The notes beneath the pieces were generated by a model. The model saw only the letters and a list, made by a program, of their open reading frames with translations. It made no database searches and had not been told where the DNA came from. From Verrucomicrobiota bacterium (GTDB taxonomy: Bacteria > Verrucomicrobiota > Verrucomicrobiia > Chthoniobacterales > UBA6821), in NCBI GenBank assembly GCA_021413925.1, contig JAIOPL010000013.1:77888-141887 (forward strand): a DNA stretch of 64,000 bases. Reading direction: 5' to 3'. Below are positions 5,401 through 59,770 of this stretch, in pieces. Position numbers and translations under genes: made by a program. Positions within the stretch are counted from its first letter, which is position 1; every line of letters starts with the position of its first letter.

Positions 5401-8159
5401 CCGTTGTTTTCCCCTGCGCGCGCCGCTGCTGTTCGGAGGCGTCGTTCGAGACGCATGAGCTGATTGTGGTCCTCGAATTTTCCTCCTTCCTTAGTGCGGA
5501 GATAAAAGACATCCAGGGCAGCCTTTTGCTCGGTGGCGATGCGCGCAGCCTCGATCGTGATACCGCCGTGAGAGATTGCCCGCAGTAAATGGTAGAGGAG
5601 TCCCAAGCGGTCGGGGGCCTGGACTTCGAGAATCGTGCACGAGGGATGGGCGTTGTTGTTGACCACGACCCAAACGGGCAATTCCTCCTCTTCATTTCTC
5701 TTCTCTCTGTCCGTGAGAATATCGCGTTTTTGTTTGGGAACAGGGACCAGTCTGTTGCCGGGGGCCATGAGTGATTCCCCGAGTTTTTGCTCGAACAGCT
5801 TGCGCTCCCTTTCCCTCGGCAGTGGTTCGTTGCGATGGTTGGTCACCTTGAAGAGGTCGAGCGCGAGGTTGTCGCTGCGAGTAAAGATGTCGGCGCCAAG
5901 CACATTGATCCCCGCTTCTAGGAACGCGGCTGCAATTCTCTCCAGCAGGCGTTCCCTATCCCACCCGCAGACAAGAACTTCGGCATATCCTGACTCGGGG
6001 TGGTCCACCCACTCGATGACGGGGCAGAGGTTTGGCCCTTCTGTATTCAACCCCTCCTCGAAGAAGCGCCGAAAAAGCCGAATGTGACGATATACTTCCG
6101 TGGCATCCTTCGTAAGGAAGTAGCGGTCCGGCATGCCGTTCATCTGCGCGGAAGTCTCTTCTTCAAACCTGTCCGGCAATGCGGCGTTGACCTTCTGGCG
6201 CAGCTCTTCCCGGCGCTGTCGCTGCTCTTCGCGGAATCCGGCGCTGTTGGTGAGCAATCCTCGAGTCTGGTGGTACAGGGACCAGACCATCTGTTCCTTC
6301 CAGTCGCTCCAACCCTCGTCGCTTGTCCCCATGCCGTCGGCAAGAGTGATCACCATAAGCGCATCGAGAGTGACGGGATCTCGGATGATTTCGGAGAATT
6401 CCTCCACCGTCGCAGGGTCATCGACATTTCTACTGCGCGCGGTTCCGCTCATTTCCCCGTGGTTGTCGACGAGCGTGATCAGCATTTTCTTCCTCGCCGG
6501 GTTGAGCTGCAGCCTTCTGGCTACCCGCTGGGCTGCCAGGGCGCTGGCCTCCTCGTGATGTTGGGTGTTGGCGGCCTTACCTGTGTCATGAAGCAGCATG
6601 GCCAGGTAGAGGATCGCGGGGTCCTCGAAGTTCCGGAAGATTTCTCGGTACCGGGCTAGCTTCTTCTCCTTGGTTAAGAGAAGCGCATCGATCTTATCGA
6701 TGCAGAGCAGCGTGTGCTCGTCGGCGGTGTACCGGTGGAAGAACTCATGCTGCACGAGGCAGGTAAGCGGCTCGAACTCAGGCAAGTATTTACCCAAGAA
6801 ACCGAGATTATGCATGAGTCGAAGGATGCGCCCGACCTCGCCCTTCCTCGAGAGGATGGAAAGAAAGACGGCGCGGTTCTCCTTGTTGTACTGAAAGGTG
6901 CGGTCCACGAGTTTCAGCCTCCGTTTCACAAGATCCTCCAGCTCTGCGGAGAAATGCACGTTGCGGGTCTGCGCTATCTGGAAGGCCCGCATGAGGCGCA
7001 CCGGCTCACGGTTGAAGATATCTCTGGCTTTCGGAAAGAGTTCCCCGTTCCTGATCTCCATTTCGTCCACGCTCGCCTGTCTGCCAAGGAGCTTACTCAG
7101 TAGGTTCATGCGGCTTCCCTGTTGCTCGCGAATTCGCCCGAGCGCTAGAGAGCTAATGAGGTGAACCGCACGCGTGTGGCTGTAATAGTCCCTCATGAAT
7201 GCCTCGCAGCGGCGGAGGATGTTTTTCTCCGGATAGCCCAGGGCTGTGGCGACCTTTCCCTGGAGCTGCAGGGTTAGCTGCTCTGATGCGCGCCCGGTCT
7301 GGTAGTGCATTTCCGTGCGTATCCGAAGCAGAAAGTCGTGGGCTTCTTCCAAGGACTTGCGCTCTCTCTCGCGCAGGATTTTTTCCTCCACGAGCTTTTT
7401 TGTTGTGTAGGCACCGGAATGGAACATCCCCATCCAAAGAAGATTCTGATAGTCGCGCAGACCACCGCAGCCCGACTTGATGTTCGGCTCCTGCATGAAC
7501 ACGCTTGTCCCGTATTTGGTCCGTAGTTCCTTGAGATTATCCATCCGGAAGGCGATGTAATCCTTCTCCTTCCCCTTAACGCAGGTGGTTTCAAACTGAC
7601 TCCTAAATTCCTGAAACAACTTTTTGTCGCCTGCTAGCCAGCGGCTTTCCAGCATTGCCGTCTTGGTCATCATGTCGGCGTTTGCCTGACTCATCGCTCC
7701 CTGTACCGACCGCGTGGCGTGACCCACCTTGAACCCAAGGTCCCAAAGAGCCATAAGACATCTGGAGATGATCCTCTCCATCACCTCGGTCGGTTTGTTC
7801 CCCGCATGCAGAAATGTGATGTCCACGTCACTGAAGGGATTCAATTCTCTCCTTCCGTACCCTCCGAATGCACTCACCAGAAATCCGGGGAGCTCTTTTT
7901 CTCCTAGTTCCTTGCTGGTCGCGAATTGAAAAATCTCCCGCACGAGGATATCCACGATTTCGGTTCTGCGGCTTGCAATTTCCTTTCCGCCGCCCCCGCC
8001 TTTGTGCCAGATCTTCAGCCGGTGCTCTTCTTTTTTAAGGAAGGATTGAAGCTTGGTTATGGGGAGTTCTTTTTCCCCCTCAAGGACATCCGCGAGCTTC
8101 CGAGCGACTTCCTCCTGGATGCGAGCGCGGTGTTCCGAGAGAGGGATGATGCCTTCCAT
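5397..8159 (-). CDS. glnD: [Protein-PII] uridylyltransferase / uridylyl-removing enzyme
   Basis: Track ORF 5397-8318 trimmed to ATG 8159 (MEGIIPLSEH), 15 nt after the upstream stop. Carries the nucleotidyltransferase motif GGYGRRELNPFSDVDI, the HD-domain motif LLHDTGK and two C-terminal ACT-like repeats. Confidence 0.88.
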   Translation of the reverse strand: MEGIIPLSEHRARIQEEVARKLADVLEGEKELPITKLQSFLKKEEHRLKIWHKGGGGGKEIASRRTEIVDILVREIFQFATSKELGEKELPGFLVSAFGGYGRRELNPFSDVDITFLHAGNKPTEVMERIISRCLMALWDLGFKVGHATRSVQGAMSQANADMMTKTAMLESRWLAGDKKLFQEFRSQFETTCVKGKEKDYIAFRMDNLKELRTKYGTSVFMQEPNIKSGCGGLRDYQNLLWMGMFHSGAYTTKKLVEEKILRERERKSLEEAHDFLLRIRTEMHYQTGRASEQLTLQLQGKVATALGYPEKNILRRCEAFMRDYYSHTRAVHLISSLALGRIREQQGSRMNLLSKLLGRQASVDEMEIRNGELFPKARDIFNREPVRLMRAFQIAQTRNVHFSAELEDLVKRRLKLVDRTFQYNKENRAVFLSILSRKGEVGRILRLMHNLGFLGKYLPEFEPLTCLVQHEFFHRYTADEHTLLCIDKIDALLLTKEKKLARYREIFRNFEDPAILYLAMLLHDTGKAANTQHHEEASALAAQRVARRLQLNPARKKMLITLVDNHGEMSGTARSRNVDDPATVEEFSEIIRDPVTLDALMVITLADGMGTSDEGWSDWKEQMVWSLYHQTRGLLTNSAGFREEQRQRREELRQKVNAALPDRFEEETSAQMNGMPDRYFLTKDATEVYRHIRLFRRFFEEGLNTEGPNLCPVIEWVDHPESGYAEVLVCGWDRERLLERIAAAFLEAGINVLGADIFTRSDNLALDLFKVTNHRNEPLPRERERKLFEQKLGESLMAPGNRLVPVPKQKRDILTDREKRNEEEELPVWVVVNNNAHPSCTILEVQAPDRLGLLYHLLRAISHGGITIEAARIATEQKAALDVFYLRTKEGGKFEDHNQLMRLERRLRTAAARAGENNG

Positions 8160-11909: not shown

Positions 11910-13298
11910 ATGTCCACGACACCCTACGACCTCATCGTTATCGGCGGCGGCCCCGCCGGCTATGTCGGCGCTATCCGCGCCTCCCAACTCGGCAAGCGCG
12001 TCGCTGTCGTCGAGAAGGAAAGGGCCGGAGGCACCTGCCTGAACTGGGGCTGCATCCCGACCAAAGCCCTGCTCAAGAACGCGGAGCTCTATTCGCTGAT
12101 AGATCACCATGCGGCAGACTTCGGGCTCGAGGTTTCGGGGCTCAAGTACGACTGGGACAAGGTCATCGGCCGGTCCCGCAAGGTTGCCGACAAGCTCGCC
12201 GGCGGCATCGAGTTCCTCTTCAAGAAAAACAAGGTCGACTACATCAAGGGTGATGCCAGCGTTGCGAAAGCCGGCGAGGTCGAGGTCCGGGGCGCTGATG
12301 GCACGGAGCAGAAACTTACCGCGCCTAAGATCCTGATCGCCACGGGCGTTGTCACCCGCGAGATGCCCGGCTTTGCGTTCAACGGCACCAGCGTCATCGG
12401 CAGCCGCCATGCGCTTGCCATCGCGAAGCAGCCCAAGGAGATCATCGTCATCGGGGCCGGAGCGATCGGCATCGAGTTCGCCTACTTCTTCAATGCTTTC
12501 GGCTCGAAGGTGACCGTCGTCGAGATGATGCCGAACATCCTTCCTGTCGAGGACACCGAGGTTTCTGTCGCGCTCGAGAAGTCCCTTGCCAAGCAGGGCA
12601 TTCGTATCCTCACCGGCACGAAGGTCGAGAAAGCCGAGGCCACGAAAGACGGTGTGAAGATCACTGTCTCCGGCGGTGCTAACGAAACACTTTCGGCCGA
12701 TGTCGCGCTCGTGGCGATCGGCGTCTCGCCACTGCTTCCAGGCGGCGCGGCTGCGATCAAGCTCGACGAACGAGGATATATTTCCGTCAACGACCGCTAC
12801 GAGACCAGCATCCCCGGCGTCTACGCGGCGGGAGACATTATCGGGCCACCATGGCTTGCCCATGTCGCCAGCTGGGAGGCCGTTCAGGCCGTCGAGGGAA
12901 TGTTCGGCAAGCGCACCCCCTCCCGCAGGCGAACGTTCCCCGGTTGTACCTACTGCCAGCCGCAGGTCGCGAGCGTCGGACTCACTGAGCGTGCCGCCAA
13001 GGAAAAGGGACTCAAGGTCAAGATCGGCAAGTTCCCCTTCCAGGCCAGCGGCAAGGCCCTTGCAGTCGGAGAGACGGACGGATTTGTGAAGCTCCTTTTC
13101 AACGAGCCGCACGGCGAGATCGTCGGAGCACACATCATCGGGGCGGATGCCACCGAGATGATTGCGGAGATGGGACTCGCCATCACGCTCGAGGCCACCT
13201 ACGACGACATCGCCTCCACGATCCACGCACATCCCACGCTCAGCGAGGCGATCTTCGAGGCGACCGAGGCGGCACTCGGTCACGCCATCCACATTTAG
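11910..13298 (+). CDS. lpdA: Dihydrolipoyl dehydrogenase (E3)
   Basis: Trimmed to ATG 11910 (MSTTPYDLIVIGGGPAGY). Redox disulfide GGTCLNWGCIPTK, NAD site GAGAIGIEFA and C-terminal HAHPTLSE. Confidence 0.92.
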   Translation: MSTTPYDLIVIGGGPAGYVGAIRASQLGKRVAVVEKERAGGTCLNWGCIPTKALLKNAELYSLIDHHAADFGLEVSGLKYDWDKVIGRSRKVADKLAGGIEFLFKKNKVDYIKGDASVAKAGEVEVRGADGTEQKLTAPKILIATGVVTREMPGFAFNGTSVIGSRHALAIAKQPKEIIVIGAGAIGIEFAYFFNAFGSKVTVVEMMPNILPVEDTEVSVALEKSLAKQGIRILTGTKVEKAEATKDGVKITVSGGANETLSADVALVAIGVSPLLPGGAAAIKLDERGYISVNDRYETSIPGVYAAGDIIGPPWLAHVASWEAVQAVEGMFGKRTPSRRRTFPGCTYCQPQVASVGLTERAAKEKGLKVKIGKFPFQASGKALAVGETDGFVKLLFNEPHGEIVGAHIIGADATEMIAEMGLAITLEATYDDIASTIHAHPTLSEAIFEATEAALGHAIHI

Positions 13299-14020: not shown

Positions 14021-14051
14021 GGGCGCTGGATGGAGCGTGAGATTTCCTCAA

Positions 14052-14077
14052 GTTTCAGGTTTCAGGTTTCAGGTTTC
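14052..14077 (+). repeat. Heptanucleotide tandem array (GTTTCAG) x3.7 in the tadA leader
   Basis: The array gtttcag gtttcag gtttcag gtttc is read directly from the sequence. It ends 21 nt before the tadA ATG (14099). Confidence 0.9.
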
Positions 14078-14098: not shown

Positions 14099-14611
14099 AT
14101 GGAAATATCCTTTCAAGATGAGCCTTCCGAGGATCCGATCATTGATCTGACCAGCGATGACTATTTCATGGGTCAGGCGCTGCGGCAGGCGCTCAAGGCT
14201 TATGAGTCCGAGGAGGTGCCGATCGGTGCCGTGGTCGTTCGCGAGGGGAAGATCATCGCGCGCGCCTCAAATCTGGTGGAGACCCTCAAGGACGCCACCG
14301 CTCATGCCGAGATGCTGGCCATTACCCAAGCGGAGAACTCGATCGGCGATTGGCGCCTGAACGAATGCGACCTCTACGTGACCAAGGAGCCTTGTCCGAT
14401 GTGTGCCGGGGCTCTGGTGAACTCACGGGTCAGGAGGGTCATCTTTGGATGCCATGATCCCAAGGGAGGAGCGGCAGGTGGCAGCATCAATATCCTTCAG
14501 ATGGATGGACTCAGTCACAGGTGTGAAATCACCGGCGGTGTGCTCGGAGAGCAGAGCGGACAACTGCTAAAGTCCTTTTTCGCCGAGCGACGAGGTAGTG
14601 CTGGGATATAG
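14099..14611 (+). CDS. tadA: tRNA-specific adenosine deaminase
   Basis: 170 aa. Cytidine-deaminase-fold zinc motifs HAEMLAI and PCPMCAGAL. Size is typical of TadA. Confidence 0.92.
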   Translation: MEISFQDEPSEDPIIDLTSDDYFMGQALRQALKAYESEEVPIGAVVVREGKIIARASNLVETLKDATAHAEMLAITQAENSIGDWRLNECDLYVTKEPCPMCAGALVNSRVRRVIFGCHDPKGGAAGGSINILQMDGLSHRCEITGGVLGEQSGQLLKSFFAERRGSAGI

Positions 14612-46918: not shown

Positions 46919-46951
46919 AAAACCTGAAACCTGAAACCTGAAACCTGAAAA
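46919..46951 (-). repeat. Heptanucleotide tandem array, sense strand (CAGGTTT)x4, in the trxB leader
   Basis: The + strand reads AAACCTG x4 exactly (46920-47947 is wrong; correct range is 46920-46947), flanked by A runs. The array is 12 nt from the trxB start codon (46907). Confidence 0.9.
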
Positions 46952-49015: not shown

Positions 49016-49043
49016 ATGAAGGATGAAGGATGAATTATGAAGG
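49016..49043 (-). repeat. Heptad array, sense (CCTTCAT)-type x4, in the purU leader
   Basis: The + strand reads ATGAAGG ATGAAGG ATGAATT ATGAAGG. The array is 12 nt from the purU start codon. Confidence 0.85.
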
Positions 49044-56068: not shown

Positions 56069-56617
56069 ATGAACTTCCTCCCGATTGCTACCGCGATATC
56101 CCGCAAAAAAGCCTCCGCCTTCACCCTGATCGAACTGCTTATTGTGATCGCCATCATCGCGATCTTAATGGGTCTTCTCTTCCCTGCAGGCCAGTCGGCC
56201 ATGAATTCGGCTAAGAAGACAACCGCCAAGAATCAGATTGTGCAGATTGCCACGGCGATCACTGCTTACGAGACCGAGTACGGCCGGTTGCCATCAAATA
56301 CAGGAACAACTGTCGGAACAAACTTGGCATCCATTCTCTGCACTGCGAATGACACAGTGAACAACCCCCGCGGACTGATTTTCCTAGAGGCTAACGCTTG
56401 GAAAAACGGGAAAGGAGGCACCAACTCATTGGGGTTCTGCGATCCTTTCAGTGCCACAAATGTTTACTCGGTGGCATTGGACACCAATTATTCAAATATT
56501 CAATCCAACGTCGACCTGCGTGGTGGCTTTGGAACTACCAACCTGACAAAACATATCGGAGTCTGGTCGACGCCAAAAGTTGGCAATACAAACGTCCTCA
56601 TCAATTCCTGGGACTAA
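56069..56617 (+). CDS. Prepilin-type N-terminal cleavage/methylation domain protein (type II secretion/type IV pilus pseudopilin)
   Basis: Trimmed to ATG 56069 (MNFLPIATAISRKKASAFTLIELLIVIAIIAILMGLLFP). Classic G/A-FTLIELL pilin leader. Confidence 0.75.
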   Translation: MNFLPIATAISRKKASAFTLIELLIVIAIIAILMGLLFPAGQSAMNSAKKTTAKNQIVQIATAITAYETEYGRLPSNTGTTVGTNLASILCTANDTVNNPRGLIFLEANAWKNGKGGTNSLGFCDPFSATNVYSVALDTNYSNIQSNVDLRGGFGTTNLTKHIGVWSTPKVGNTNVLINSWD

Positions 56618-56624
56618 TTTATAC

Positions 56625-56698
56625 GCGGGTGTGGTTCAATGGTAGAATGTGGGCTTCCCAAGCCTGAGACGAGGGTTCGATTCCCTTCACCCGCTCCA
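56625..56698 (+). tRNA. tRNA-Gly (anticodon CCC), CCA encoded
   Basis: GCGGGTG TG GTTC AATGGTA GAAT G TGGGC TTCCCAA GCCTG AGAC GAGGG TTCGATT CCCTT CACCCGC T CCA. Hand-folded cloverleaf. Confidence 0.9.
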
Positions 56699-56921
56699 AG
56701 ACAAACCCGTTATTTGGTTTGTTGAGCCTAGTAGTAAATGACGTGGGGTTCGATTGATTGACAGCACTTGCCTCCCGGCAAGCCGTGCAGCCCTTTCAGG
56801 GTCCTGCGGTCGCAGGATCTACCGCGCCGCTTCCCATCGGCTTGGTTCGGTCGTTCCCACGACCCTCGCCCTAAAGGGTTTACCTTCAGTCAATCTACAC
56901 CGTGCCTCCCGGCACTCGGTG

Positions 56922-56939
56922 TTCCCTTCACCCGCTCCA
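56922..56939 (+). repeat. Exact 18-nt direct repeat of the tRNA-Gly 3' end (att-like)
   Basis: TTCCCTTCACCCGCTCCA is identical to 56681-56698. Confidence 0.9.
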
Positions 56940-56947
56940 CTTTCCTC

Positions 56948-56967
56948 GGAGGCAAAACGCCTCTTTT
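56948..56967 (+). terminator. Intrinsic terminator
   Basis: GGAGGC-AAAAC-GCCTC followed by TTTT. Confidence 0.6.
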
Positions 56968-57129
56968 GAGCTCATAAATACAGCCTCCACGGGCAATCAG
57001 TAAAAAGGCAGCACTTGTATGAAGTTGCCTGGATTTACCTTTAGTTTGTCAGGATTTGTCAGGAAAATATTGCCGGCCCGGTGAGTGTTGGAATGGCTCG
57101 AGCTAGCCTAGAGTAGCTCCGGTTGGGCA

Positions 57130-58314
57130 CTATTTTTTCAACCACTGATCGACCGGCGTGGAGAGAAATTCCTTCAAAGGTATCCCGTCACCTCCCACGA
57201 GTAGTGAGCGCAGCGGAGTGAATTGTTTCTGGAATGAGGCCATCCCGTTGAGAGCTTCCCTCCGCTTCCCGCTCTTCACCTCGATCGCGACGATATTTCT
57301 TCCCTGTTGAATCACGAAGTCCACCTCCATGTTTCTGTCACGCCAGTAGGTGACTTCAATATCCTTGCCCAGCGTGTCGCCAAGCAGATGGGCCCCCACA
57401 GCTGATTCTACCAAACGACCCCAGGCATTACCGTCCTTTCTAGTTTCCTCAAAGTTCATGCCCGAGGTGACGGTCATGAGTGCGGTATTGAGCACCTGGA
57501 GTTTGGGGCTCGAACCCCGCTGACGAACTTTTCCATGCGAGAATTTTGAGAGGCCGGCGACCATGCCTGCTCCTTGGAGAAGCTGGAGGTAATGAGCCAG
57601 CGTCACGGTGTTTCCGGCATCGGTCAATTGACCGAGCATCTTCTGGTAGGAAAGGATCTGCCCTGAGTAATCGCAGGCCAGTTGAAAGACCCGCCGAAGG
57701 AGGGCCGGTTTGTCCACCCTTGTCATCAGCAGGATGTCTCGTGAGATGCTCGTCTCTACCAGCGAATCCAGAATGTATCTGCGCCAGCGATCCGGTTGGG
57801 AGATCAAGGGGGCGGCTCCGGGATATGAGCCGTAGTAGACGAACTGCTCCACTCCCCATCGGAACGCCTGATGTATTTCAGAAAACGACCAATGGGGAGC
57901 TGCAATGACCTCGAACCTTCCGGCAAGACTCTCTGTCAGTCCGCTTTGGATGAGCAAAGGGGAGGAACCAAGGAGCACCACGCGCAGGCGCACCTTGTTA
58001 TGGGTATCGGCATCCCAGAGCGATTTGACCGATTCCGACCATCCCTGCACCTTCTGGACTTCATCCAGGATCAGCAAGGCATAGCCATTTCTAGCCATCA
58101 GACGCCCTATTTCCCACTGTTGGGCAAGCCACGCGGATCCCTTCAGCGCAGGTTCATCCGCAGAGGCGTAATGGGAGGGCAAATCGAGCTTCTCCATGAC
58201 CTGCCTTGCCAGTGTGGTCTTCCCAACCTGTCGAGGACCTGCCAGCACCTGGATGAAGCGCCTTTTCTCGGACAGTCTTTCTAGGAGGGTATCGTGGATG
58301 AATTGGCGAATCAT
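57130..58314 (-). CDS. AAA+ ATPase with C-terminal DUF4143-like domain
   Basis: 394 aa with an ATG start. Walker A LAGPRQVGKTTLARQV, Walker B LLILDEVQKV. The C-terminal third (EVDFVIQQGRNIVAIEVKSGKR) resembles the restriction-endonuclease-like DUF4143 module. Confidence 0.8.
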   Translation of the reverse strand: MIRQFIHDTLLERLSEKRRFIQVLAGPRQVGKTTLARQVMEKLDLPSHYASADEPALKGSAWLAQQWEIGRLMARNGYALLILDEVQKVQGWSESVKSLWDADTHNKVRLRVVLLGSSPLLIQSGLTESLAGRFEVIAAPHWSFSEIHQAFRWGVEQFVYYGSYPGAAPLISQPDRWRRYILDSLVETSISRDILLMTRVDKPALLRRVFQLACDYSGQILSYQKMLGQLTDAGNTVTLAHYLQLLQGAGMVAGLSKFSHGKVRQRGSSPKLQVLNTALMTVTSGMNFEETRKDGNAWGRLVESAVGAHLLGDTLGKDIEVTYWRDRNMEVDFVIQQGRNIVAIEVKSGKRREALNGMASFQKQFTPLRSLLVGGDGIPLKEFLSTPVDQWLKK

Positions 58315-58840: not shown

Positions 58841-59284
58841 CTACTTTTTCAAGGAGTCGCGGATTTCGGTTAGGAGCTCTTCTGTTTTCGTCGGATTTGC
58901 GGCTGCGGATTCGGTTCTTTTCAGCGTGTTGATGGCCTTCACAAGAGCGAATACACAGGCGCTGATGATCACAAACTCGATCACCGTGTTGATGAAGCTC
59001 CCGTAGGCTAGGATAGCAGCCCCATCTTTCTGGGCATCGGCAAATGTGGCGTAGTGTTTGCCGTTAAGGGGAAGATAGAGGTCCTTGAAGTCAATGCCCT
59101 TCAGGACCAGTCCGATCGGGGGCATGATAATGTCGCTGACCAGGGCGGCGACGATCTTGCCGAAGGCGGCTCCCATGATAACGCCGATCGCCAGATCGAC
59201 GACATTCCCGCGACTGATGAATTCCTTAAACTCCCCGAGGAACTTCGTGGAGTTAGCGACGACTTTTTTGGGTTCAGGGATCAT
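58841..59284 (-). CDS. mscL: Large-conductance mechanosensitive channel
   Basis: 147 aa. [27 protein letters not shown] signature. Confidence 0.92.
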
Positions 59285-59294
59285 GTGAAAAGGG

Positions 59295-59321
59295 TGAAGG
59301 CTAAAGGCTAAAGGCTGAAGG
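59295..59321 (-). repeat. Heptad array, sense (GCCTTCA/GCCTTTA)x4, in the mscL leader
   Basis: The + strand reads TGAAGGC TAAAGGC TAAAGGC TGAAGG. The array is 10 nt from the start codon (59284). Confidence 0.85.
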
Positions 59322-59351: not shown

Positions 59352-59732
59352 CTAACGGGCATGCTGGATCAGCTCCACTTCGTAACCCTCAGGGGCGTCG
59401 ATGAAGGCGATGATCGAGCCTGAGGAGGTGTGATGGGGCCCGTCACTGAGCGGGTAGCCCTTGGCTGCGGCCTCCTTGGCAAAGGCCTCCAGATCCGTGA
59501 CCTCGAAGGCGAGATGGGTGAGGTCCGGCCCGACCACCACGGGGCCGCTGGCGTTATATTCGCAGATCTCGATTTCCTCGGTGCTTCCGGGGGCTTTCAG
59601 AAAGACCAGCTTAGAACCGCGTCCGCTCTCGCTCCGGCGGACTTCCTGCAACCCGAGGACGTCGCGGTAAAAAGAAACCGTCTTCTCAAGTTCCTGAACG
59701 CGATAGCGGGTGTGGAGGAGTTTGGTGATCAT
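59352..59732 (-). CDS. VOC-family protein (glyoxalase I / methylmalonyl-CoA epimerase-like)
   Basis: 126 aa. LLHTRYRVQELEKTVSFYRDVLGL N-terminus and a paired beta-alpha-beta-beta-beta layout. Confidence 0.8.
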   Translation of the reverse strand: MITKLLHTRYRVQELEKTVSFYRDVLGLQEVRRSESGRGSKLVFLKAPGSTEEIEICEYNASGPVVVGPDLTHLAFEVTDLEAFAKEAAAKGYPLSDGPHHTSSGSIIAFIDAPEGYEVELIQHAR

Positions 59733-59746
59733 TTTTTAGAGGATGT

Positions 59747-59770
59747 GACCTGAAGCTTGAAACCTGAAAG
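59747..59770 (-). repeat. Degenerate heptad array (sense TTTCAGGTTTCAAGCTTCAGGTC) in the VOC-gene leader
   Basis: The + strand reads GACCTGA AGCTTGA AACCTGA AAG. The array is 14 nt from the start codon (59732). Confidence 0.75.

Follow-up and report, generated by a model that had tools for sequence, protein, structure and literature searches.

In a 64-kb stretch of contig JAIOPL010000013.1 from a Verrucomicrobiota bacterium (the whole of this stretch is referred to here as the window, and coordinates are window positions on the plus strand unless a locus or strand is named), the intact gene for tRNA-Gly(CCC) is followed by a structured noncoding segment and then by an exact copy of the 3' end of the tRNA. 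Our analysis indicated that this segment is probably a structured repeat, similar in kind to repetitive extragenic palindromes (REP) and bacterial interspersed mosaic elements (BIMEs), which is seated in an attachment (att)-type remnant of tRNA-Gly and has no dedicated role as a tRNA decoy. The repeat belongs to a high-copy, intergenic, and uncatalogued family of freshwater Chthoniobacterales (Verrucomicrobiota) and their phages. A preliminary description, made from the letters of the segment alone, had offered three other readings, namely, a small RNA (sRNA) or sponge derived from the tRNA trailer, decoys of the tRNA anticodon stem-loop, and a minus-strand array of the CsrB/RsmZ kind. None of the three was upheld as stated by the results presented below.

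Anatomy of the insertion downstream of tRNA-Gly(CCC)

The intact tRNA-Gly(CCC) gene (56625-56698) was identified with ARAGORN and scored 66.7 bits with the Rfam tRNA model. Its last 18 nt, TTCCCTTCACCCGCTCCA, extending from the T-loop to CCA, were found exactly twice in a repeat search, at 56681-98 and 56922-39 (18/18 identity), as had been described previously; ~0.08 matches to this 18-mer would be expected by chance even with 3 mismatches allowed. The second copy consists of the 3' part of the T-loop, the 3' strand of the T-stem, the 3' strand of the acceptor stem, and CCA, and it behaves as an attR-type remnant. The DNA bounded by the two direct repeats is 223 nt long and noncoding, in agreement with the earlier judgment that it holds no credible open reading frame (ORF); the only ORFs overlapping the segment were two mechanical ones with TTG starts, of 71 and 69 amino acids. 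The interval folded at -108.3 kcal/mol compared to -81.8 +/- 5.0 kcal/mol for dinucleotide shuffles (z = -5.3; z = -4.0 for the minus strand), in keeping with the folding that had been assigned to it by eye.

Scanning of species-representative genomes with the neighboring RNase R gene (rnr) yielded 22 syntenic loci. All 22 were from Verrucomicrobiota, order Chthoniobacterales ("Spartobacteria"), with metagenome-assembled genomes (MAGs) from lakes predominating. In the closest loci that reach beyond the tRNA, L003 and L004 (with RNase R identities of 96% and 92%, respectively), the CCA of the tRNA is joined directly to ctttcctcggagg...cctcttttgag, which is the sequence that follows the second repeat in the window. 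Because L003 and L004 join the tRNA straight to the same terminator, the window carries a 241-bp insertion (one 18-bp repeat copy counted). The terminator in question, GGAGGC-AAAAC-GCCTC followed by TTTT (56948-56967), had been described as a good intrinsic terminator. It is indeed the tRNA's own terminator-like hairpin, standing directly after tRNA-Gly in L003 and L004 and displaced 241 bp downstream here, but it was not called by a strict consensus terminator scan because only 4 T residues follow the stem. The segment was likewise absent at this locus from L005, L007, L010, L019, and others.

The insertion opens with a 41-nt spacer (56699-56739) in which a hairpin is predicted (56700-56707 paired with 56716-56723). 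This is followed by a pseudo-tRNA piece, GACGTGGGGTTCGATT (56740-56755), which on direct reading copies the variable loop, the 5' strand of the T-stem, and the T-loop of the tRNA (compare 56668-56682, GACGAGGGTTCGATT). Since 56740-55 copies the variable loop and the 5' half of the T-arm, the duplicate represents the last third of the tRNA and not just its 3' end; 56740-55 and 56922-39 jointly make up this last third, which is interrupted within the T-loop by 166 nt of inserted DNA. This insert starts with a canonical four-hairpin repeat unit (56756-56847; 90.1 bits and E = 2.4e-16 with covariance model R1, described below) that begins with TTGAC and ends with CTTGGTT. Its hairpins are P1 (56764-56788; loop TCCC at 56773-76), P2 (56790-56802), P3 (56803-56816), and P4 (56821-56846; loop CTTCCCAT at 56830-37). 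The remainder belongs to an older insert. Sequence and fold identified a solo P4-like hairpin, GGTCG-TTCCCA-CGACC (56849-56864; loop at 56854-59), which has a compensated homologue in L021, and the fold placed after it a small hairpin, GCCC-TAAA-GGGT (56868-79), with GTCAATC (56889-95) closing this part at 56895. The older insert is bounded by GATTGAC (56756-62) and by GTCAATC, which are inverted partners. The last piece (56896-56921), TACACCG-TGCC-TCCC-GGCA-CT-CGGTG with its loop TCCC at 56907-10, was recognized by blastn as the junction and P4 tail of an older unit of the L008 type; window positions 56895-56939 were 91% identical to L008, 91% identical to L011, and 81% identical to L012, in the same position ahead of the copy of the tRNA 3' end. 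The four loops therefore read exactly as they had been reported in the preliminary description. The enclosing helix proposed there (56791-803 with 56861-78) is present in the minimum-energy fold of this sequence but is not conserved; in 113 relatives the region 56790-56802 forms the local hairpin P2, and the partner at 56861-78 lies outside the conserved unit.

Order of insertion at the locus

A second occurrence of the insert, at a different locus and with no intact tRNA nearby, made it possible to order its parts. Contig L226 contains, at 7400-7830, two head-to-tail modules of 240 nt, each composed of a tRNA 3' end (TTCCCTCTACCCGCTCCA), the spacer hairpin, GGGTTCGATT (the T-arm half), and the insert; the spacers of the two modules are identical, as are their solo P4-like hairpins, which also match that of the window. 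The insert of the first module corresponds to window positions 56750-56921, with 1 mismatch in the 92 nt of the canonical unit and ~5 differences in the remainder. The second module lacks exactly the canonical unit, reads GGTTCGATTGAC|TCGTTCG, and retains the same GATTGAC/GTCAATC ends. Because precisely that unit is missing from the second module, the canonical unit is a nested insertion in an older element. Moreover, since the spacers and tRNA ends of the window and L226 differ and the insert is nearly identical, the insert appears to have been moved or copied between loci; its mobility would be at the DNA level.

Shorter or variant units in a similar arrangement after tRNA-Gly were found in L008, L011, L020, and L021 and partly in L013. 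In L012 the variant arrangement lies 2 kb away, on a longer tRNA-Gly pseudogene whose copy reaches back to the D-loop. L008, L011, L013, and L226 have a spacer of like layout, its hairpin compensated, after the tRNA end; L003 and L004 lack it. CCA is missing from the tRNA's own copy in L008 and L011 (..gct ttc / tac) and is present, exactly or approximately, in the distal copy. Insertion into tRNA loops was also seen in L019, where a tRNA-Ser(GGA) copy (12069-12580, minus strand) is split by two units, one after the D-loop GGTCGA and one after the T-loop GGTTCGA, and is followed by duplicated flank sequence and then by an intact tRNA-Ser ~270 nt away; in the sister genome L011 (12495-12581, minus strand) the gene is single and uninterrupted. 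Such insertions were seen only in redundant copies, presumably because an insertion into a needed gene would not be retained.

The following course of events would account for this anatomy. Site-specific integration at the tRNA T-arm would have left the last third of tRNA-Gly in a second, redundant copy; the T-loop of this dead copy (GGTTCGATT^) would have been struck by an older short element (56756-62 plus 56848-56921); and the canonical ~90-nt unit (56756-56847) would then have inserted inside the older element. At this locus the element is probably a passive passenger of transcripts that read through the tRNA and end at the displaced terminator. Cotranscription as a 3' trailer is anatomically plausible, since the segment lies between the tRNA and that terminator.

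Contig breaks were common at these sequences. L001 ends at ~56670 of the window and L002 begins at the tRNA end, and contigs L199, L211, L223, L224, L229, L241, L247, and L252 also end at the tRNA repeat or inside a unit. Because so many contigs stop there, the repeat family evidently breaks short-read assemblies.

The canonical unit belongs to a structured repeat family

Pieces of the insert recur elsewhere in the genomes of relatives, for example, between rnr and bioB in L009, L008, and L021. There, units lie inside a (TTCAGCT)n array, and bare (TTCAGCT)x4 occupies the interval in L011 and L019. A search pattern based on the first two hairpins matched viral contigs and 102 metagenome contigs, almost all from lakes, giving ~80 distinct units. 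A covariance model (R1) was built from 60 units; it detected the single unit at 56756-56847 in the window and at least 176 units in 628 kb of lake-metagenome contigs, and it scored the tRNA-linked copies in L008, L011, and L012 as weaker, shorter versions (30 to 35 bits). The consensus unit is ~90 nt long and comprises, in order, WTTGAC, P1 (outer stem GSCAC/GTGSC plus an inner stem, loop YCCC), P2 (GCCC..GGGC), a variable P3, the junction TCTWCCGCG, P4 (variable stem, loop TTCCCA), and CTTGGTT. Its two termini, TTGACGGCAC... and ...GCTTGGTT, do not form an inverted repeat; an inverted pair, the 7-bp GATTGAC/GTCAATC, is present in the older insert alone.

The preliminary description had named conservation and covariation in relatives as the test of its structure, and both were seen, which indicated that the unit is a conserved noncoding structured element. 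In the model-fitted alignment, 94.6% of cells were paired, 19 of the 24 pairs had changes on both sides, and 382 double-change cells were counted compared to 114 +/- 12 in shuffles. Control structures slid by 1 to 3 columns gave at most 47% paired cells and at most 37 double-change cells. An alignment made with MAFFT and fitted to no structure still gave 91.6% paired cells, with 194 double-change cells versus 61 in shuffles. The pairing is not that expected of an RNA used on one strand. With one invariant G.U pair set aside, G.U pairs (37) were no commoner than A.C mismatches (27), and Watson-Crick pairing is thus kept on both strands, a pattern that marks either a palindrome acting at the DNA level or the use of both strands. 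UNCG tetraloops, an RNA-specific signature, were absent from the units, and the CTTCG loops that occur are triloops.

These alignments also bore on the resemblance of the loops to the CCC anticodon loop, from which the decoy proposal had been drawn. Among 113 distinct units, the P1 loop was TCCC in 77 and GCCC in 18, and the P4 loop, which lies outside the search pattern, was TTCCCA in 63. Because UCCC and UUCCCA are thus the consensus in more than 100 copies that almost never stand beside tRNA-Gly, the likeness is incidental. The loops in the window are, moreover, 4, 8, 6, and 4 nt long, and the anticodon loop has 7 nt.

The remark that the opposite strand displays GGGA-type loops proved sound as far as the loops themselves are concerned. 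In the window they read GGGA and UGGGAA on the minus strand and are mostly 4-nt loops of the GNRA type. Family-wide, predicted minus-strand loops were of the G..A type (GGGA, GAA, GUA, and GUAA; GNRA/GNA) in 222 of 359 cases compared to 4 of 338 on the plus strand, and of 107 units compared, 90 by RNA parameters and 97 by DNA parameters folded to a lower energy on the minus strand. The CsrB-style array that had been built on this remark was not supported, as discussed below.

Additional modules were noted within or beside units, GCCCGGCCGTTGCTTCRCAGCCGTTAMGGC and CTTTTGTACTCGCTTGCTCCCGCAAGG.TCACCCTTTGGGTCCACCTTCGGTGGCT (contigs L192, L202, L216, L218, L225, and L287, and contigs L229, L238, and L287, respectively). 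Together with the units, these modules form a mosaic, BIME-like system.

Distribution and insertion sites in host genomes

Genes near units were called with our own codon log-odds caller. By this measure, 170 of 182 non-redundant units were intergenic. Between codirectional genes, 26 units were in the sense and 26 in the antisense orientation, and a further 17 and 13 lay between convergent and divergent genes, respectively; since sense and antisense placements were equal, no orientation is preferred by the units of hosts. Units in host contigs occur singly, in tandem, or in mosaic groups, and their presence or absence varies between sister genomes.

The right flank began with TTC in 59 of 79 distinct units, and left and right 8-mer flanks resembled each other at 5.37 of 8 positions compared to 4.37 +/- 0.13 for shuffled partners. 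These flanks fit TTC-N4-TT as the form of the target, and the T-loop TTCGATT conforms to it. The likeness of the two flanks is explained equally well by target duplication and by insertion into arrays, because empty sites already hold tandem heptamers. No clean target duplication was found, and the 5' flank showed no fixed tetra- or pentanucleotide.

Units in phage structural operons

In viral contigs, a sample enlarged by a second viral scan, all 23 of 23 distinct units lay on the coding strand. The TTTGACA end was placed exactly 13 nt ahead of a start codon in 10 of 18 scorable phage units and 13 to 17 nt ahead in 16 of 18. A Shine-Dalgarno (SD)-like 4-mer preceded 4 of the 18 genes downstream of these units, which is about the background rate of those contigs. 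L058, L067, and L059 are genuine head-module regions (terminase, portal, protease, and major head protein), and divergent phages share the slots in which units stand, namely, protease-[unit]-~187-amino-acid protein-major head protein and terminase-[unit]-~96-amino-acid protein-portal. The orientation, spacing, and synteny of these units look like evidence of a function in expression and not of mere selfish DNA, although insertion that is strand specific could contribute to their co-orientation. A sigma-70, sigma-54, or leaderless promoter at the TTGAC/TTGACA ends was considered and failed on inspection by eye, as the 13-nt spacing is unfit and no -10 element is conserved. Some phage contigs (L058, L063, L066, L067, L059, and L290-L309) carry a subfamily of the unit with the junction TCTTACGCG and the tail CTTGTTTGACA, and a terminator is sometimes present just upstream of phage units.

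Searches for known families and mobilizing enzymes

The comparison with Rfam proposed in the preliminary description returned no family beyond tRNA. With Rfam 15, only two tRNAs passed gathering scores in the 64-kb window; at E <= 10 over 56500-57200, tRNA and chance matches alone were obtained, with no CsrB/Rsm family among them; and at E <= 1 nothing was found over the units of six related loci. The unit and the segment had no blastn match in GenBank phages or PLSDB plasmids. A full-text search of the literature found no description of the repeat family, which is weak evidence of absence.

A remnant of a phage attP arm, the alternative that had been named as a refutation of the RNA proposals, was also sought. 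The one match to the junction CGGYGTTCCCYTCACCMGCT was spurious and lay in coding sequence, and none of 120 viral contigs with the tRNA-Gly 18-mer had units, spacer, or insert. The attP interpretation was not supported. With an Escherichia coli CsrA query, tblastn of the window and ~1 Mb of related loci found nothing; this is a weak test.

Alternative explanations

Several results weigh against the view that the segment is a REP/BIME-like repeat in an att-type remnant. An exact deletion between the two 18-bp repeats would explain the empty site in L003 and L004 just as well. The unit, having neither terminal inverted repeats nor a clean target duplication, does not have the shape of a classical transposon, and no longer or autonomous element bounded by P1-type and P4-type unit ends was found. 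No integrase or transposase was present near the site or in the 2-kb islet of L012, and among 150 genes within 2.5 kb of units the 25 commonest Pfam families included neither enzyme. (The families that did recur were PIN, with 8 genes, AAA_14, with 6, DUF4143, with 5, and HEPN/nucleotidyltransferase, with 2 or 3; the ATPase homologues had no fixed position or orientation relative to units.) The spacer hairpin is compensated across distant lineages, and selection or mobility of the whole module would fit this better than a decayed remnant would. Finally, there are the orientation, spacing, and synteny of the phage copies described above.

One possibility, which we hold to be tentative, is that the whole 241-bp module is a miniature nonautonomous integrative element, similar to a cis-mobilizable element (CIME), whose integrase is encoded elsewhere, which targets the T-arm or 3' end of tRNA-Gly, and which restores the gene with its own 3' end; the circular junction expected of it is ..CTCGGTG|TTCCCTTCACCC..-spacer. 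The exact 18-bp direct repeats corresponding to T-loop-to-CCA of the tRNA, the clean empty site in close relatives, and the tandem L226 modules with identical spacers, as in site-specific accretion, are consistent with such an element, as is the lack of CCA in the first tRNA copy of L008 and L011, which would be expected if the element supplied a new 3' end. The covariation of the spacer hairpin among the window, L008, and L226 points the same way. However, no integrase was found around the window site or in the L012 islet, none of the 120 viral contigs with the tRNA 18-mer had the spacer or insert, and 241 bp is too short to contain arm-type sites. Moreover, the repeat and spacer differ between the window and L226 and the insert is nearly identical, so that movement of the insert itself fits better. 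We consider it rather unlikely that the unit is instead a functional RNA module on the UCCC strand, a cis-acting leader or trailer that protects mRNA ends, serves as a processing site, or positions ribosomes in genomes with low SD use, of which the host copies, including that in the window, would be working or decaying instances. The coding-strand placement of all 23 phage units, their fixed spacing to starts ahead of genes of which only 4 of 18 have an SD-like 4-mer, and their syntenic slots in divergent phages argue for this, together with the strong covariation, the one G.U pair that is invariant on the UCCC strand, and the position of the window copy within the tRNA transcription unit. Against it stand the equal numbers of sense and antisense host units and, the invariant pair aside, the lack of G.U enrichment over A.C; in addition, the opposite strand folds better and bears the stable G..A loops, the window copy is missing from the nearest relatives, and the phage co-orientation is explicable by strand-specific insertion.

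The strand asymmetry might also mean that the minus strand is the active one, as a CsrB/RsmZ-like decoy or as another RNA or single-stranded DNA that displays GGGA loops. The excess of G..A loops on that strand and its lower folding energy in most units favor such a role, and transcription of the ATPase gene (57130-58314), on that same strand, runs toward the element. Nevertheless, this is very unlikely, since no CsrB/Rsm family was matched even at E <= 10, the repeat is dispersed at high copy in both orientations and is no discrete gene with a promoter and terminator (neither was called on the minus strand around the window copy), no CsrA was detected in ~1 Mb of related sequence by the weak test described above, and in phages this strand is antisense to every gene. 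GGGA tetraloops are, moreover, smaller than typical CsrA-binding loops. Least credible of all is a dedicated sRNA or sponge from the tRNA 3' external spacer, or hairpins serving as anticodon-stem-loop decoys, with a tRNA-Gly-binding or tRNA-Gly-cleaving factor as their target. The segment does lie between the tRNA and its terminator, and UUCCCA equals 6 of the 7 anticodon-loop bases, but the loops are the consensus of more than 100 units unrelated to tRNA-Gly, their sizes (4, 6, and 8 nt) are not that of the anticodon loop, the closest relatives lack the segment, its core is a single copy of a repeat that numbers at least 176 in 628 kb of related contigs, and the same insert occurs in L226 without an intact tRNA nearby. 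From these results we infer that the element has no dedicated role at this locus. A broader and more speculative proposal, to which we assign a low probability, is that Verrucomicrobiota and their phages have a mobile or regulatory system, as yet undescribed, of which the unit is the working part. Such a unit, possibly derived in the end from tRNA-Gly(CCC), would fold strand specifically and spread without inverted repeats into TTC-N4-TT sites, including tRNA T-loops, perhaps via a single-stranded DNA or RNA intermediate, and it would have been fixed by phages 13 nt upstream of starts as an SD-independent signal for structural genes. Together, these comparisons leave the REP/BIME-like repeat in a tRNA-Gly remnant as the probable explanation.

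Other features of the window

The neighbors of the segment are a gene for a prepilin-type protein and the AAA_14/DUF4143 ATPase gene (57130-58314, minus strand). The latter gene is absent from L003 and L004, and homology to these loci ends near 57067. The spacer between the terminator and the ATPase gene contains a perfect tandem decamer, TTTGTCAGGA x2 (57045-57064).

Tandem arrays of T-rich heptamers (3 to 5 copies) stand ~5 to 25 nt upstream of starts, with the T-rich strand in the sense orientation. Arrays in the window were located at 14048-14077, 46920-46950, 59289-59321, 59748-59769, 49016-49043, and 1525-1544; the heptamer types include TTTCAGG, TTCAGGT, AGCCTTT, and CCTTCAT, and the genes concerned include those at 14099 (plus strand) and 46907 (minus strand), mscL at 59284 (minus strand), and a glyoxalase gene at 59732 (minus strand). 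Units insert in arrays of this kind in relatives, and the arrays may be a leader or promoter feature of the lineage. A comparison of array orientation with that of genes gave no clean result, as a G/C-skew rule misassigned the TTTCAGG type. Two intergenic regions of the window also contain inverted pairs of octamer arrays, (CGCAGAGA)x3 ... (CTCTGCGC)x3, ~100 nt apart (26393-26416 with 26502-26524 and 28481-28500 with 28589-28613), and a similar pair is present in L011 (1886-2008). The octamer-array pairs are a second repeat structure, different in kind from the units.

Significance

For annotation, these results explain a puzzling tRNA-linked structure and flag a family that breaks assemblies and that could be mistaken for a riboswitch or sRNA in motif screens. 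They also suggest that a repeat targeting T-loop-like sequence finds safe landing pads in the redundant tRNA fragments that integration leaves behind. One and the same structured module occurs in both orientations in hosts and, in phage structural operons, in a single orientation at a fixed distance from start codons. If the phage copies are functional, they would offer a handle on gene expression in a phylum with apparently low SD use; to our knowledge, nothing about gene expression in the Verrucomicrobiota has been established experimentally.

Comparison with known systems

The unit family most resembles the REP/BIME and REPIN/RAYT systems of enterobacteria and pseudomonads. Like these, it is present in high copy, strictly intergenic, and inserted in both orientations; it occurs singly, in tandem, or in mosaics with short modules; its hairpins are kept by compensation; and its presence or absence varies among relatives. 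It differs in that the unit is ~90 nt long and has four distinct hairpins with conserved loops and junctions, whereas a REP is one palindrome of 20 to 40 bp. In addition, a conserved GTAG or CGTC tag is lacking, a RAYT was not encountered (no genome-wide search for one was made), and copies are also found in phage structural operons. A second likeness is to BOX of Streptococcus pneumoniae, ERIC/IRU, and Correia/NEMIS, which are modular, ~100 to 150 nt long, and stably folded by prediction when transcribed, and which insert beside genes and can end in leaders or trailers. In contrast to these elements, which resemble miniature inverted-repeat transposable elements (MITEs), the unit has no terminal inverted repeats or fixed TA-type duplication, its stems are hypervariable yet compensated, with far more covariation than young MITE copies, and the family is confined to uncultured freshwater Verrucomicrobiota.

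The context in the window resembles tRNA att duplications and CIMEs, in that the repeat is T-loop-to-CCA, an intact gene and a dead fragment stand at opposite ends, the site is empty in relatives, and tandem accretion is seen in L226. However, only 41 nt and repeat elements separate the two copies, no integrase is nearby, and the dead fragment is itself split. The unit also shares with IS200/IS605-derived palindrome-associated transposable elements (PATEs) and integron attC sites a structure that is kept as the sequence varies, the absence of inverted terminal repeats, hairpins near both ends, and a strand asymmetry, seen in the G..A loops of one strand and in a mismatch or wobble that is invariant. 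Unlike PATEs and attC sites, it has four hairpins and not a left-end/right-end pair or a single bulged hairpin, its 5' flank is not a fixed tetra- or pentanucleotide, it lacks cassette ORFs, and neither a Y1 transposase nor IntI was found. Finally, the position of the segment, downstream of a tRNA and inside its transcription unit, recalls the 3' external transcribed spacer (3'ETS)-leuZ trailers, and the recurrence of one loop motif in several hairpins (UCCC; GGGA on the opposite strand) recalls CsrB/RsmZ; unlike either, the segment is not locus specific, is absent from the nearest relatives, forms no discrete gene, carries the loop motif of a dispersed family, and has no covariance-model match. 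The general kind to which the family belongs, a structured interspersed intergenic repeat, and the tRNA att remnant are already known; the repeat family, which fails the defining features of REP, MITE, and CsrB and matches no Rfam family, appears to be a new member of this kind.

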